A stretch of DNA of 64,000 nt from Candidatus Bathyarchaeota archaeon (GTDB taxonomy: Archaea > Thermoproteota > Bathyarchaeia > Bathyarchaeales > Bathycorpusculaceae), in contig OY970340.1 of assembly GCA_963717465.1 (NCBI GenBank), positions 800,001-864,000 of the forward strand. The letters are read 5' to 3'. Numbering within the stretch: position 1 is the stretch's first letter; every line of letters starts with the position of its first letter. The notes beneath the pieces were generated by a model, which did no database searches, was not told where the DNA came from, and saw only the letters and a program-made list of their open reading frames with translations. This document shows, one piece after another, positions 36,586 through 51,252 of the stretch. Made by a program: the position numbers and the translations under genes.

Positions 36586-37023
36586 TTACGGATACCAATG
36601 GACAATGAGCAGGAATCCAAGAATAAGGAAAATAACAATCAATGCCAATCCAAGTATAACAAGCCAGTAAGAAGCTTTCAAAGACTCAGCAGTAATAGAC
36701 GTATCTGAGGTTTTAATCGTTGGTAAAACAAATATTAAGTGATAGTATCCGAGTAAAGTCAATATTGCACCGACCCAAAATCCGAAAACGCAAAATTTGA
36801 CTGTTGAAAAGTCGCTAAGAAATGCAATAAGTGCAGCAACAATCAGGAGCAAAGATAGAAGCATAAAACCAATAACATTCCTGTTTAGACTCTTGCCTGA
36901 AACGCTAAACTTGCTATCCTTTTTGTTTGTGTCGTTCTGTGTTTGGTTTTGGGTTCCATTTTTGTTTGTGTCGTTCTGTGTTTGGTTTTGGGTTCCATTT
37001 TTGTTTGTGTCGTTCTGAGTCAT
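36586..37023 (-). CDS. Hypothetical 3-TM protein with an N-terminal Asn/Gln/Thr repeat
   Basis: MTQNDTNKNGTQNQ repeats followed by three hydrophobic helices. Confidence 0.6.
   Translation of the reverse strand: MTQNDTNKNGTQNQTQNDTNKNGTQNQTQNDTNKKDSKFSVSGKSLNRNVIGFMLLSLLLIVAALIAFLSDFSTVKFCVFGFWVGAILTLLGYYHLIFVLPTIKTSDTSITAESLKASYWLVILGLALIVIFLILGFLLIVHWYP
36920..37017. repeat. 39-bp tandem repeat, ~2.5 copies
   Basis: TTTTTGTTTGTGTCGTTCTGTGTTTGGTTTTGGGTTCCA repeated; encodes TQNDTNKNGTQNQ. Confidence 0.95.
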
Positions 37024-37152
37024 AGTTTCTAATATTATTAATTGCATATTAAACTGTTGGTTATAGCTGACCAACATTCTTACTAAAATGGTGCATATTA
37101 GGCGTATCAGCAAGCAGAATTTGTTGTTTATTTATGAAATTTGATGGAAAAG

Positions 37153-37255
37153 TGCCGAGGGCAGGGTTTGAACCTGCGACGACTCGGTCTTCAGCTTCGC
37201 CCTCAGTCACAAGAGTAACTGGGTCGAGCGCTCTCCCAGGCTGAGCTACCTCGGC
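37153..37255 (-). tRNA. tRNA-Phe(GAA) with a 29-nt intron in the anticodon stem (about position 30/31; 37196-37224)
   Basis: GCCGAGG/CCTCGGC acceptor, GCTC/GAGC D stem, CTCG[intron]G-CTGAAGA-CCGAG, GCAGG-TTCAAAC-CCTGC. Confidence 0.9.
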
Positions 37256-38979: not shown

Positions 38980-40188
38980 ATGAGGAAAATTTCATTTGAC
39001 ATGTTTGAGTTAGATCCTAAAACCAAGAGCCCTGATTGGTACTGGAAATTTGAAAAACCAACTTTTACAGATATAGACGAGCTGCTTTTCGAGCGTTTAG
39101 CTGACAGGCTTCGTGAAAACAACGAGAATAGAGCTGGAGGAGAAACTTTCGAAGCACTCGTCAATCCTGAAGAAGCCAAAAGAAACATGCTGACAACAAC
39201 AATTGAAAGGGACGTATTAACCCTCAGAGTGCTTGATTCATGGGCTGACATAATAAAAATACCTGACTTACACAAGTATCCAAAGCTAAATCTTATAGCT
39301 CAGTTAATGTGGGTTTCAAAATTTGATTTGGACGGCTTTAACCTTTACACGCCCTCTTATGGGGAGCCTGAAGTCGGCGGCACAGCCAACATGACAGCCC
39401 ACATGAGTCATGTCCCCAAAGAAAGAGCATTCGAATACATGGGTGGAATCGACAACGTTATTGTTCCAGACTTCAAGAATGTCGGTGCATACGCAAGGTA
39501 TCTTTGGGTTGTTAAAGAAATCAAGAATTTCCTGACTAAGAACGGCATTTCCTTAACAGTCGGCGCATCCTCTTGCCCTGACCCCGCTGGAGTTGGGATA
39601 GTAATTTTTGGTCCTGAAAGAATGAAAAGACTCGCTAAAGAAGACCCAGACCTCTTCCATAAAGCATTGAAAATCGGGTATCAATACTCGCTTAATTTCA
39701 CTAATGCCCTTTACGAAGCTGGAGCAGACTACGTTTGGCACTGCGCTCACCTCAACGATGTAGATTATGATTCTATAAAGCAATATGGATATGAAAAGTA
39801 CAGTGTAGACCTTTACAATGCGACAAAAATCTTTGCTGGACCAATCGGAACACTTACTCCGAGGCACGCGGAAATATTTGCAAGCTTCCCAACAACAGGA
39901 ATTTCACTGGAAGACAACGTGAATTTCGTTGAAGACATGAAGATACTCGTCAATCACGGTGTATACGCTACGTCGATTCTTGACACAAAAGTTGCTTCAA
40001 GCGGAACACCCGAGGAGATAAATAATGAAATTCGGTGGAAGTACAAGACAGCCCGAGAATTAGGACGCAACGAGTTCAACATGACTGCTGAATTTAAAGA
40101 ATTCATGGTTCCAATGGAAAGAGTCCAGTTGGTTCTTGAATCTTTACGTGAAGGAAGCAGAGCTTTCATCCAAAAAACTCTTCAATAA
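38980..40188 (+). CDS. Uroporphyrinogen decarboxylase-fold protein (divergent MtaA/CmuA methyltransferase-like)
   Basis: GASSCPDPAG, DPDLFHKAL..EAGADYV, SGTPEEINNE..VPMERVQLVLE barrel pattern; AAGGAGG RBS. Confidence 0.6.
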   Translation: MRKISFDMFELDPKTKSPDWYWKFEKPTFTDIDELLFERLADRLRENNENRAGGETFEALVNPEEAKRNMLTTTIERDVLTLRVLDSWADIIKIPDLHKYPKLNLIAQLMWVSKFDLDGFNLYTPSYGEPEVGGTANMTAHMSHVPKERAFEYMGGIDNVIVPDFKNVGAYARYLWVVKEIKNFLTKNGISLTVGASSCPDPAGVGIVIFGPERMKRLAKEDPDLFHKALKIGYQYSLNFTNALYEAGADYVWHCAHLNDVDYDSIKQYGYEKYSVDLYNATKIFAGPIGTLTPRHAEIFASFPTTGISLEDNVNFVEDMKILVNHGVYATSILDTKVASSGTPEEINNEIRWKYKTARELGRNEFNMTAEFKEFMVPMERVQLVLESLREGSRAFIQKTLQ

Positions 40189-40218: not shown

Positions 40219-41390
40219 ATGGAAAGCAGGGATGCATCAACCGAAATTAAAGCGCGCTGTGGTAAGTGTACAACCTGTCTTCTAACAAAATGTAATCGTG
40301 TCTGCGCTAACTTCGGCCGATGCTACACCATTTGCCCATTTTTAAAATCCGTTAAACTCACACCAAAGGAAATAGCAAACAGTTTCAACCCTAAACAATC
40401 CAGTCGACATTCAAAGAATTTACAGTTGCATGCAATGCGGTTTATGTGAACAAGCATTATGCCCCCAAGGCCTAAGCCCTGAAGAAATGATTCTAAACTA
40501 TAGAGAAAAAGCAGTAGACCAAAACAAAGGTCCAATGCAGTATCATCGTTTCCAGTTCACAAACGAGAAAAACAACTTCTTCTCCATATACAAACAAGAA
40601 TATGGTGGCCTTGAACAGCCGACCCTTGAAGGAAAATACGACTATGTGTTCTTTCCAGGCTGCGCCTTATCCGCTTTTGCTCCTGGACTGGTTAAGGCAA
40701 CTCAGGATTTGCTTGTTGCAAAACTGGGAAATGTTGGGCTTTTGCTTGATTGCTGCTATCAACCCCTAAGAAACATTGGGCTGAAAGATGCGTTTAACAG
40801 CAGTCTGTCTCAACTAAAAGGTAAACTGAAAGAAATCGGCAATCCAAAACTCATTAGTCTCATGCCCCAACTGTTACCGTATCTTCGAAAAAAACTTGGA
40901 CAAAAACTTGGTATTATCCGTTTATGACGTGCTAAAAGATCAACCCTTAAAGTTCAAGCCGTCTGGAAACATTGCCATTCATGATTCATGCCCATTCAGG
41001 TACTACCCAAAAGAATTAGACATAATACGAAAAATATTTACCTCAAATGGCATAAATCCAATTGAATTCGACTACAACAGAGAGCATACCATGTGCTGTG
41101 GAGCAGGCGGCGGCGTTGCATACGCTAATTCGGAATTGTCTGCTAAAATGAGCGAGGATATTTTGGCCGAAGCAAAACAGAAAGGTGCCGATGTTCTTGT
41201 CGCTTATTGCTCCTCGTGCATTAACCAGTTTTCGGCAGCTTCAGAAAAATACGGCATTAAACTGTACCATATGCTTGACCTAATCACTGGAGCGCAAACT
41301 GATTATCAGAAAATTAGCCAAAACATTCAAGAATTATTCACTGAACCCAAATGGAGCTCAGTGCTTTCAAGACTTGGAATATCGCAGTAA
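40219..41390 (+). CDS. (Fe-S)-binding protein with CCG domains (HdrD/GlpC-like), two frameshifts near 40400 and 40856
   Basis: C..FGRC...CP, SCMQCGLCEQALCP, FFPGC, DCC, SCPNC (across the shift), HDSC, MCCGAGGG, YCSSC. Confidence 0.8.
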
Positions 41391-45538: not shown

Positions 45539-45692
45539 TGGCTAGTTTGTCTCTCGCCAGCCAAATCCCATGCTCATAAAGAGGTATGGTTCTAAAAATC
45601 AACCATCTACAACAGCAAAATAACAAACCCACATATTCAGCAATTAACTTATATACAATTTCAAAATCCAATTCTTAACCGTAAAAGCCGAT

Positions 45693-45783
45693 GGCGTCCT
45701 ACAGCTAGGTGGTCCTGGCATCGGACTTCAAATCCGATGAGTCCGGTAAGGTCTCGGGGTTCAATTCCCCTTGGACGCCGCCA
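45693..45783 (+). tRNA. selC: tRNA-Sec (anticodon UCA), 9/4 fold, CCA encoded
   Basis: Acceptor GGCGTCCTA/TTGGACGCC (9 bp, one T-T), D arm GCTAGG-TGGT-CCTGGC, anticodon arm ATCGGA-CTTCAAA-TCCGAT, variable arm GAGTCC-GGTAA-GGTCTC, T arm GGGG-TTCAATT-CCCC, G73, CCA. Confidence 0.96.
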
Positions 45784-47097
45784 TTACTCCACCGTTTTCA
45801 AAACCGTGTCTAAGCGTTCAACTGCCAGTGCAACGTCTTCTTTTTGCATTCCTATGCCAACATCAAAATTGATGTAAGAAGAATGGTATTTTGGGCAGCA
45901 TACTCCAAAATCAGTCGGGTCCAAAGCTCTTGCCCCTGTTACTCTTGACGCGAACAAGGCTTTGCCTATCTTTTTTGCGCTTCTACCATTCAGTGTCATT
46001 GCAACTGAAACTGGATTGTTAACGTTCAACACTCGCTGAGAGTGCTTTTTTGCAGTTTCCACCAAATATTCTTCTAAAAGTTTCCTGTTTTCTTCTTGTT
46101 CACTTCTTAGTTTTTCGTAGCCATCTAATCCCATGGATAATATCGCTGCCAAGAACTGGGCAATAGGAGCTGCAGACGCTCTGCCAGGATAAACGTTAGC
46201 AATTTCATTCATGAATTCTTCGTTGGGCGAAGCAACTATAGCTCCTCCCACTGGCGCAAGAAAATTCTTGTCAGTACTTTGCACTACTGCGTCTACTCGG
46301 CCAGCATCAATTGCGCCTCTGATAAGCTTCATTACTTCTCTGCTTTGCACACCGTAAGCATTGTTTATGATATGTGGAACATTTTTTTCTTTAGCGATCT
46401 TGGCAATTTCCTTTATTTTGTCAGGTTCTCTGGGAGTGAAAAACGTTGTTGTCGATAAAATAGCTGTGGTTTTTTCGGAAACCGCCTCTTCAATTTCCTG
46501 CTCGGGAACGTTAACTGCGTCTCCAAAGATTTTTCCTTCAATAATTTTTTCCTGAAGTCCTGCAAGCCTGATTGCTTTTATAGGAGTTTTATGGTCAACT
46601 CTTGGATACACAACTTCATTTCCACCTTTGCAGTTTCTAGCGGCGCATAAGGTCAGTCCCAGCGCCATTCCTGTTGCAACGGGGAAAACAACTGCCTTTT
46701 TGATGTTTGGAGCTCCAAACCTTCTCATCGCATCGGTTGCCAATTTGTTAGCTAGAAAATACAGCAGTGTTCCTCCTGCTGCCTTAGGCTGCGGCCCAAC
46801 TAAGTCGCCTGTTCTTCCGACACCATGGTGAAATCCAAAAGCAAGTTTGGAGATAAGAGGAGAAGCAACTCTTCCTTCCCTTTCACCTATCCGTGCAGCT
46901 TTGCTATCCTTATCCGAATCCATACCTGATAAGAAATTTAGCAAGCTTTGAATTTGATTGTCACTCCAGCCAGTCTGGGGTATTCTTCTTTGTTCAAAAA
47001 GCGTTTTTATCGGTTTGGACTCTGATTGAAGAACCATCAAACCTCGATCAAGAATTTCCTTAGGAATTGTATCCTTCAATTTTTCAGGCGGTATCAA
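45784..47097 (-). CDS. spcS: O-phosphoseryl-tRNA(Sec) selenium transferase (SepSecS)
   Basis: MDSD..GEREGRVAS, HGVGRTGDL..QPKAAG, PVATGM, HIINNAYG, QSTDKNFLAPVGGA (PLP lysine), YPGRAS; adjacent to tRNA-Sec. Confidence 0.95.
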   Translation of the reverse strand: MIPPEKLKDTIPKEILDRGLMVLQSESKPIKTLFEQRRIPQTGWSDNQIQSLLNFLSGMDSDKDSKAARIGEREGRVASPLISKLAFGFHHGVGRTGDLVGPQPKAAGGTLLYFLANKLATDAMRRFGAPNIKKAVVFPVATGMALGLTLCAARNCKGGNEVVYPRVDHKTPIKAIRLAGLQEKIIEGKIFGDAVNVPEQEIEEAVSEKTTAILSTTTFFTPREPDKIKEIAKIAKEKNVPHIINNAYGVQSREVMKLIRGAIDAGRVDAVVQSTDKNFLAPVGGAIVASPNEEFMNEIANVYPGRASAAPIAQFLAAILSMGLDGYEKLRSEQEENRKLLEEYLVETAKKHSQRVLNVNNPVSVAMTLNGRSAKKIGKALFASRVTGARALDPTDFGVCCPKYHSSYINFDVGIGMQKEDVALAVERLDTVLKTVE

Positions 47098-47153: not shown

Positions 47154-47235
47154 TTTTAGGCTTAATTGATTAGCTTGCCTGCCTATTTTAGGCTTAATTG
47201 ATTAGCTTGCCTGCCTATTTTAGGCTTAACTGATT
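47154..47235. repeat. 32-bp tandem repeat, ~2.5 copies, upstream of SepSecS
   Basis: TTTTAGGCTTAATTGATTAGCTTGCCTGCCTA at 47154 and 47186, partial third copy at 47218. Confidence 0.95.
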
Positions 47236-50034: not shown

Positions 50035-50439
50035 TTAAGGGAGTGTTTGAAAGCCTGCTTCTCTAAAGTGGCTGTCAAACGTGAATGCTTCAAGAACTGA
50101 AAGATCTTTCATTAAGGCGAAACTAGTGCAATCAGTAAAACTCCATGGTTTTTGATCAGATTTTCGAAAACTGCTCAGTGCTTTTTCAAACAGGTTATCA
50201 TCAACCCAGAACACACGCATACTCCTGCTTTTTCTTATTTTATCGATGAAAGTGGAGGCTGTTAACAAGTTTTTTCTTATCCGTAGCAAAGTCAATGTTT
50301 CATCTAGAATGTAGTCGGTTGTTATTGGAACACCATATTCTCCGGAAGCTAACTTAGATAGAAACCCGTATGCTTTTTCGTGGTTTACATCATCTTCCAC
50401 TTCAATTGCGTACCATGCACTGGTGTCAACAAATATCAC
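50035..50439 (-). CDS. vapC: VapC PIN-domain toxin
   Basis: IFVDTSAW, DYILDET, SFTDCTSF, AFTFDSHF. Confidence 0.92.
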   Translation of the reverse strand: MIFVDTSAWYAIEVEDDVNHEKAYGFLSKLASGEYGVPITTDYILDETLTLLRIRKNLLTASTFIDKIRKSRSMRVFWVDDNLFEKALSSFRKSDQKPWSFTDCTSFALMKDLSVLEAFTFDSHFREAGFQTLP

Positions 50440-50684
50440 TATGCTTCCCCGTAAAGGTACTTGTCATGTTTTGTGGACCCATAATCTTTCTTTCCAGTTT
50501 TCTTGAAGCTGGGTGGGCTGGTGAAGATAGGATCGTTTTGGTCCACGTTGCCTTCCACCTTGGTTTTGATGGCTTCCCGAAGAACATCCTTGATGCTCAT
50601 TGCGTTCTTCTTGGCGTATTCCTCAAGAAGTTTATGTTCCGCTTCGGTCAGGGTTGTCTGAACAACTTTCATGTTGCATGTCAC
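50439..50684 (-). CDS. Ribbon-helix-helix antitoxin (VapB-like)
   Basis: VVQTTLTEAEHKLLEEYAKK..SIKDVLREAI; C-terminal STKHDKYLYG; overlaps the vapC start. Confidence 0.82.
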   Translation of the reverse strand: MTCNMKVVQTTLTEAEHKLLEEYAKKNAMSIKDVLREAIKTKVEGNVDQNDPIFTSPPSFKKTGKKDYGSTKHDKYLYGEA

Positions 50685-50900
50685 ATTCTGAATGAAACAT
50701 TAAGCAAAATGAGATTTAAGCATTACCTCAGGTTTTAAAAATTGATGTTACCTGTATGCAAGAAGGTCTTGTTTGAAAAATCAAAAGAACTTGGATTCAA
50801 CCTCAACGGAAAATTCGAAAATCACTTAAAACGATTAATTCACCAACCTTTCAAACAACCAAACTGCACAAAATAATATGTCATCACAGAATTCATGTTA

Positions 50901-50947
50901 TTGGTGGACTGAACCGGATTCGGAGCAGCAGTCTTTTGTACATCAAG
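50901..50947 (-). repeat. Degenerate copy of the tRNA-Val 3' half from anticodon loop to CCA (att-like site)
   Basis: 36/47 ungapped identity to 51621-51667; the adjacent ~30 nt of flank also align. Confidence 0.85.
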
Positions 50948-50961
50948 AAACCGTTCCTTAA

Positions 50962-51252
50962 TTATGTGTAGGCTTGGTCATGGTGTGCATATTTCAGAAC
51001 CCTAACGACCTTGGGATTTTCGAGCACTTCATAGATGAGAACAAACGATCCCACATGGACTCTTCTTAGCCCTTCTAAAGGGTGCCTTAAGGGTTTGAAT
51101 TGCAATGGATCAGTTAGTATCTGGTCAATTTTTTTATTTATTGCTTCCAATTGTGGCTTGTCTTTTTTGGCTAATTTCTTGAATGTCTTATAGACTTCTT
51201 CCTCGAGTTCTAAGCTATACAAGCAATCACTTTTGCTTGAACTCTTCTGCAA
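50962..51252 (-). CDS. RelE/ParE family toxin
   Basis: YSLELEEEVYKTFKKL..FKPLRHPLEGLRRVHVGSFVLIY..HHDQAY. Confidence 0.88.
   Translation of the reverse strand: MQKSSSKSDCLYSLELEEEVYKTFKKLAKKDKPQLEAINKKIDQILTDPLQFKPLRHPLEGLRRVHVGSFVLIYEVLENPKVVRVLKYAHHDQAYT

Follow-up and report, generated by a model that had tools for sequence, protein, structure and literature searches.

With moderate confidence, we propose that a Bathyarchaeia genome carries a third archaeal kind of UGA recoding, in which SepSecS and a PSTK-aSelB fusion would work together with position-locked hairpins inside the coding sequences, one per UGA, and with no SECIS in the untranslated regions (UTRs). The system would serve 14 genes, including two families that we did not find described: 11 Mo/W enzymes in which selenocysteine (Sec) would be the ligand, and an MtaA/UroD-like methyltransferase with two Sec residues. 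If true, an archaeal in-gene signal breaks the rule of "bacteria inside, archaea and eukaryotes outside". The genome is a single contig (OY970340.1, here C1) of 3.05 Mb and is 88% complete. Its tRNA-Sec and SepSecS genes lie in the window, the whole stretch of 64,000 nt analysed here (positions 800,001 to 864,000 of the contig), and, judging from sequence, very probably provide the tRNA and the last enzyme of a functional two-step route to Sec, of the kind known from Bathyarchaeota.

The tRNA-Sec gene (UCA anticodon; 45693..45783, + strand) was recognized by Rfam, by ARAGORN (tRNA-SeC, anticodon TCA) and in the sequence itself, and has the 9/4 archaeal/eukaryotic fold. The RF01852 match covered the whole model (45693-45779, +; 71.8 bits vs. 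a gathering threshold of 47, E 9.6e-13). This supports the complete UCA tRNA with a 9-bp acceptor and a 4-bp T stem proposed in the first-pass annotation, with one refinement: the nine acceptor positions comprise eight pairs and a U:U mismatch at the eighth (U6:U67 in Sec numbering). Alignment and sequence gave a D stem of 6 bp with a 4-nt loop, an anticodon stem of 6 bp, a long variable arm and a T stem of 4 bp. G73 is at 45780 and the CCA is encoded at 45781-45783. A putative TATA box, recognized by eye, lies ~40 nt upstream (45649..45656, +).

The gene for O-phosphoseryl-tRNA(Sec) selenium transferase, SepSecS (45784..47097, - strand; 437 aa, TTG start), is present in one copy in the whole genome. 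It scored 489 bits against TIGR03531 (cut-off 225) and E 1e-119 against PF05889. Residues 8-433 align to the M. maripaludis-type SepSecS (2Z67, E 8e-102), and the open reading frame is intact, as had been claimed; the protein also aligns to mammalian SEPSECS (3BC8). The lysine of the STDKNF motif, which we take to be the PLP lysine, is kept. With family membership given by the full-length match and the active-site region intact, the enzyme is predicted to turn Sep-tRNA into Sec-tRNA. The two genes converge tail-to-tail, with a 0-nt gap between the CCA and the SepSecS stop codon, so that the 3' trailer of SepSecS is antisense to the tRNA. The 3-nt spacing from stop to G73 was kept in 14 of 25 SepSecS-positive relatives (CCA in 13, a degenerate tRNA copy in one). 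Among the other 11, the genes were convergent at 7-553 nt in five and the tRNA was on the same strand in four; one had no tRNA in the flank and one ended at a contig edge. Upstream of SepSecS, 57 nt from its start codon, Tandem Repeats Finder gave a 32-bp tandem repeat with 2.6 copies (47154..47235) that may serve as an array of binding sites.

PSTK, SelD and SelB, noted earlier as lying outside the window, were all found ~105 kb further on, and the locus is thus no orphan. SelD, at C1:951.7 kb, has one in-frame TGA at the Cys/Sec motif. It is followed after 60 nt by a PSTK-aSelB fusion of 732 aa in one ORF (PSTK at residues 9-241, SelB at 278-647). The selB match was above cut-off (271 bits); the PSTK domain had an E of 3e-43 but stayed below cut-off. 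In this copy the GTPase motifs are intact. The alignment to archaeal SelB (4AC9) runs up to residue 478 of 482, indicating an archaeal-type C-terminus; bacterial SelB matches end at residue 535-575 of the 732, and the bacterial winged-helix extension is absent. SerRS and CysRS are both encoded, and neither SepRS nor SepCysS was found over cut-off in this genome (88% complete). All machinery genes are intact, and the UGAs are at Cys-aligned catalytic positions. The conversion of Ser to Sep to Sec on tRNA-Sec is established chemistry for these families. Here, SerRS would load Ser onto tRNA-Sec, and the N-terminal PSTK half of the fusion would phosphorylate the Ser-tRNA-Sec. The PLP enzyme SepSecS would then exchange the phosphate for a selenol, with selenophosphate supplied by SelD, and the aSelB half of the fusion would bring the Sec-tRNA to the UGA.

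At C1:2829.6 kb there is a second tRNA-Sec, with an extra base in the D stem (61.8 bits), followed by a second PSTK-aSelB (together C1:2827363-2829725, = L001:7364-9726, - strand), among hdrB/hdrC, corrinoid-protein and the two-UGA MtaA-like genes. The second fusion is 54% identical to the first, with altered G1, G2, G3 and G4 GTPase motifs. There was no obvious TATA box within 70 nt before the second tRNA-Sec. None of the 25 SepSecS-positive relatives had a second full fusion, and two had a second tRNA-Sec over cut-off. The genome also has a second CysRS-like gene (C1:3049309-3050547), below cut-off and with one internal TAA, and two tRNA-Cys calls.

The Sec trait of Bathyarchaeia is known yet overlooked. 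The novelty implied for this lineage in the first-pass annotation did not hold, as passages of Mukai et al. (Front Genet 2022, PMC8762117) describe Sec systems with a PSTK-aSelB fusion in "diverse Bathyarchaeota" and, for a wetland lineage, a tRNA-Sec with U6-U67. A first report of Sec in Bathyarchaeia is ruled out by that paper and by Meng et al. (2022, PMC9499178), an excerpt of which restates the Bathyarchaeota system. Bathyarchaeota SepSecS is listed in a table of PMC11602143; the excerpt of PMC5424206 has SepRS only. The term "Bathy" gave no match in the searchable text of a 2026 review (PMC13188914) and a 2024 archaeal survey (PMC11227280), and the same review, in its section on the subject, confines archaeal Sec to Methanococcales, Methanopyrales and Asgard. 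For this trait, reported in one earlier publication and passed over by recent reviews, the present locus contributes a further case from a near-complete genome in one contig. As in the Bathyarchaeota/Archaeoglobus system of the Mukai passages (PMC8762117), we found SepSecS, PSTK-aSelB in one ORF and a U6-U67 tRNA-Sec; unlike there, the cluster is split in this genome, and both the tRNA-Sec and the fusion are present in two copies. Those passages contain no recoding signal and no selenoprotein list, and they explain the fusion as protection from SepCysS. SepCysS was not found here or in 24 of 25 carriers, and this rationale therefore does not fit most carriers.

A coding-potential screen with alignments predicted 14 selenoprotein genes with 16 UGAs. 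Together with Sec-SelD, PSTK-aSelB and SerRS, they bear out the earlier inference that UGA is recoded and that selenoproteins are encoded elsewhere in the genome. Of 115,369 TGAs, the hexamer screen kept 95 as strict and 647 as loose candidates; it may miss selenoproteins below ~60 aa or with a terminal UGA. Three low-energy candidates outside the accepted 16 (C1:2430577, 947700 and 2510505) were set aside without a homology test because read-through lengthens their coding sequence little. Besides selD, the set comprises an HdrA-MvhD fusion gene with two UGAs, an MtaA/UroD-like gene with two UGAs (C1:2822987-2824225) and 11 paralogues of the molybdopterin family (MopB) with one UGA each. Of the first-pass candidates for UGA aligned to Cys, HdrA, MvhD and SelD carry it; three other full-length molybdopterin genes, including formate-dehydrogenase-like ones, had no TGA. 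Among the other MvhD domains, a TGA was found in 1 of 10. Sec in [NiFe] hydrogenase large subunits was ruled out, as the five matches had no in-frame stop. In genomes of this kind, standard annotation would cut short 14 or more genes of redox and C1 metabolism.

In the MtaA-like gene, the first UGA site was Cys in all eight covering paralogue alignments and the second in four of six. The read-through product gave no NCBIfam family, no plasmid match and no PF01208 match at its place, and was assigned to its family through weak links with the paralogues. One Cys paralogue, which served as a control, lies in the window outside the Sec locus (38980..40188, +; PF01208, weak MtaA match) and has Cys at both aligned positions (tblastn 23% identity, E 3e-4).

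In the 11 MopB paralogues, all UGAs are on the same Cys-aligned codon. The closest solved structure was acetylene hydratase (2E7Z), matched over the full length (E 1.6e-104), and the UGA aligns to its ligand Cys. The Asp beside the [4Fe-4S] cluster Cys, presumably the catalytic Asp13 of acetylene hydratase, is replaced in all 10 paralogues compared (Ser in nine, Gly in one). Lacking this Asp, the paralogues are unlikely to catalyse acetylene hydration. In acetylene hydratase the ligand is Cys (PMC10100899). Three of the 11 genes are frameshifted, by decay or assembly error. At E 1e-30 we did not detect the expansion in 36 of 40 relatives; the other four had seven MopB matches, at 33-39% identity and without a stop. 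A Cys-form and a divergent Sec-form acetylene-hydratase-like member lie ~2 kb apart (C1:1817888-1820059 and 1822144-1824357). A term search in the available text of the 2026 selenoprotein catalogue gave no entry for acetylene, MtaA or uroporphyrinogen, and within the literature covered, which leaves out subscription journals and is partly excerpts, we found no paper on a Bathyarchaeia SECIS, a Bathyarchaeia selenoproteome or a Sec acetylene-hydratase-like family. Both the acetylene-hydratase-like paralogues and the two-Sec MtaA-like protein are apparently new selenoprotein families.

Behind the Sec UGAs we found an in-gene hairpin, defined as a fold of -15 kcal/mol or better with the main stem starting at +7 or +8. 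It was present at 14 of the 16 Sec UGAs, compared with 1 of 293 genes truly ending in TGA; -15 kcal/mol was reached by 1.1% of 1314 Cys codons. As the 11 paralogues are interdependent, the case for the hairpin rests on ~5 independent sites. In hdrA, both UGAs are followed by a hairpin of their own. At these two sites, the mean fold energies of hdrA-mvhD were -24.6 and -22.6 kcal/mol in 15 UGA forms, and -8.7 and -12.4 kcal/mol in 16 Cys forms, with no overlap. The synonymous identity of codons +3..+16 ranked 11 and 5 of 761 windows in the UGA forms and was average in the Cys forms. The Sec forms compared are close kin, and the hairpins show little true covariation. In the MopB family, the lower six hairpin pairs were held in 10-11 of the 11 genes with almost no covariation, and the hairpin window tied at rank 3 of 726, not a unique peak.

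At the first MtaA-like UGA, no clear stem was found at +7. The selD of this genome has a weak fold (-3.2 to -5.4 kcal/mol), and fold energy failed to separate 13 UGA forms (mean -9.5) from 12 non-UGA forms (mean -9.9), one frameshifted locus being left out. Synonymous conservation did tell them apart: codons +3..+13 of selD ranked 1 of 326 windows in six close UGA forms (0.97 vs. a mean of 0.49), whereas in 11 Cys forms the rank was 310 of 326. The distant UGA forms G039, G223, G067 and G410 fold into a clear stem that starts at +7/+8, as does one Cys form, G233. Many Sec-positive genomes carry the Cys form of selD, including six of the seven genus members, the seventh being frameshifted at the site; the genome studied here keeps Sec-SelD. 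The selD loci of 11 close relatives are L075, L076 and L078-L086.

The loops lie ~19-24 nt from the UGA and share no motif between families, nor do they generally have a G at either of the first two positions. In most of the 14 genes an oligo-T run lies within ~35 nt of the stop; otherwise their 3' regions share nothing, and these ends seem too short for a SECIS. Two home-made UTR SECIS patterns matched none of the 14 3' regions, in a scan of the 3' side with no positive control; the Methanococcus-type pattern also matched 0 of 308 background regions and may be too strict. From these comparisons, the recoding mark is fairly probably a stem-loop of 30-40 nt that begins 6-7 nt after each UGA, in frame, and not a 3'-UTR SECIS. 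With the UGA in the A site, the base of such a hairpin would sit at the mRNA entrance of the ribosome. There the stem-loop might hold back release factors, bind an adaptor, or both, and the mark may recruit PSTK-aSelB either by direct contact or with an adaptor in between; aSelB, whose domain IV is of archaeal type, would offer no bacterial winged-helix reader. We moderately prefer such a structure-based mark, which would delay termination at the mRNA entrance and perhaps bring in the fusion, to an auxiliary hairpin acting with a UTR SECIS that went unseen.

The alternative of an accessory element takes the Sec pathway as real and the hairpin as a helper, with the required SECIS in the 5' or the distal UTR and missed by our patterns; we consider it unlikely, though it has points in its favour. 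The SRE of SELENON has a spacer of 6 nt. Eukaryotic SREs such as those of SELENON and SELENOT are described in the available text of PMC8704476 as stem-loops just 3' of the UGA-Sec, with a short spacer, which inhibit termination and act with a 3'-UTR SECIS, and the hairpins found here are like them in position. The missing bacterial SECIS-binding domain of aSelB, the family-specific loops and the uncontrolled UTR scan point the same way. On the other hand, SREs are accessory and occur at few codons (PMC8704476, same text), whereas here almost all Sec codons have a hairpin and no element turned up in the 3'-UTR scan; oligo-T runs are all that the 3' ends of the 14 genes have in common. The hdrA 3' regions look unalike among the 15 Sec forms, against a nearly frozen in-gene stretch, and one hairpin per hdrA UGA contrasts with the one archaeal SECIS that serves two UGAs in an excerpt of PMC9499178. 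It is very improbable that UGA is read as Cys through SepCysS cross-talk or the second tRNA/PSTK-aSelB copy. Archaeal SepCysS can take Sep-tRNA-Sec (PMC8762117, in the passages available), and the second tRNA-Sec adjoins a fusion with rewritten GTPase motifs; against this, SepCysS and SepRS are missing over cut-off from the 88% of the genome at hand, CysRS is present, and SelD and SepSecS are intact and occur together in 24 of 25 carriers. That the locus is a relic and the UGA genes are pseudogenes would agree with the frameshifted MopB genes and with the lack of the trait in most kin, and is practically ruled out by co-occurrence and UGA position: the UGA is on one Cys-aligned codon in all 11 paralogues and at both hdrA sites in 14 full-length relatives, hundreds of open codons follow downstream, and the Sec machinery is complete.

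The favoured arrangement, an in-gene hairpin read with SepSecS and PSTK-aSelB, shares parts with several known systems. According to the sections available of two reviews (PMC9499178, PMC13188914), archaeal SECIS elements are in UTRs and no archaeal SECIS-binding protein is known. Like Methanococcales and Methanopyrus, as excerpted in PMC9622424, PMC9499178 and PMC13188914, this genome has the SerRS-PSTK-SepSecS route, an aSelB with a short domain IV, and Sec in SelD, HdrA and MvhD/VhuD. Unlike there, PSTK is fused to aSelB, the D stem has 6 bp, and the [NiFe] large-subunit matches are without an in-frame stop. In contrast to the eaSECIS described for these groups in the excerpts, no UTR GAA_A element was found in the 14 3' regions (pattern without a positive control), and the methanococcal SECIS is distance-tolerant (PMC9622424, in part), whereas the hairpins found here are position-locked. 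Asgard archaea use the same biosynthetic route (PMC11227280, PMC13188914, both in part), and the 14 predicted genes are close to their selenoproteome size, within the archaeal range of 1-19 given in the available text of PMC13188914. Unlike the Asgard eSECIS-like 3'-UTR elements reported in those excerpts, no AUGA/GA-type element was found in the 14 3' regions (pattern without a positive control), and, again unlike the Asgard account excerpted, one expanded molybdopterin family dominates the selenoproteome. As in bacteria, the hairpin is in the coding sequence right behind the UGA, one per UGA, and the loop distance is within the 16-37 nt of the bacterial SECIS model (PMC13188914, in the part covered). 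Unlike in bacteria, there is no SelA, aSelB lacks the bacterial extension, and the loop G is not general.

Among sampled genomes, SepSecS was found in 21 of 300 of the family and 7 of 88 of the genus (overlapping draws), and in 11 of 400 of the class, with 1 of 40 in the first draw and 0 of 24 genus members there (again overlapping). All 25 SepSecS-positive relatives had the PSTK-aSelB fusion, 24 had SelD, 20 had an Rfam tRNA-Sec and one had SepCysS. Fourteen carriers had a full-length hdrA-mvhD with two TGAs and three more had split TGA pieces. In 15 chosen SepSecS-negative genomes there was neither a tRNA-Sec nor a TGA in the hdrA match. Close relatives have one cassette of Sec-hdrA-mvhD, tRNA-Sec, SepSecS and PSTK-aSelB, which is split into several pieces in this genome. 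The closest named SepSecS records were labelled Bathyarchaeia/Bathyarchaeota in five of six cases (71-74% identity), which points indirectly to a Bathyarchaeia host as the likely one.

Two observations speak against a spread of the cassette mainly by horizontal transfer: in the EF-2 tree as in the SepSecS tree, this genome is an early branch within its group of close relatives, and the GC content around SepSecS, 0.41-0.43, is close to the genome-wide mean of 0.40. Transfer as the main route is nonetheless a possibility to be taken seriously, if a doubtful one. The cassette is compact in relatives and patchy in presence, and deeper SepSecS pairs mix families. The relative G144 is placed outside the g1/g45 clade on EF-2 and inside it on SepSecS; EF-2 is a single marker, and its five deep rows are a different paralogue (45-48% identity). 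Descent with many losses and some transfer is the simplest reading of this one marker.

Further variants were seen in individual relatives. A 13 kb contig labelled Candidatus Limnocylindrales bacterium (L035:1-13308) has the whole cassette, with flanks, at 59-72% identity to this genome; it is most likely a mis-binned archaeal contig and not a transfer to bacteria. In L030:7869-8990 the tRNA-Sec is duplicated, with a changed D arm. G173 (L054) has a degenerate tRNA-Sec beside SepSecS and an intact copy near PSTK-aSelB on another contig.

Elsewhere in the window, a 39-bp tandem repeat with 2.5 copies (36920-37017) lies within a small membrane-protein ORF (36586-37113). It is followed by an intron-containing tRNA (37153-37255, - strand; Rfam 46 bits), identified as tRNA-Thr by whole-genome ARAGORN and missed by ARAGORN on the window. 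A Cys-rich (CCG) Fe-S oxidoreductase at 40430-41390 is present as two overlapping ORFs, with a frameshift by decay or assembly error. At 50035-51252, beside a tRNA-Val, a PIN-like gene with a small partner and a RelE-like gene, all labelled by eye, form toxin-antitoxin-like pairs.
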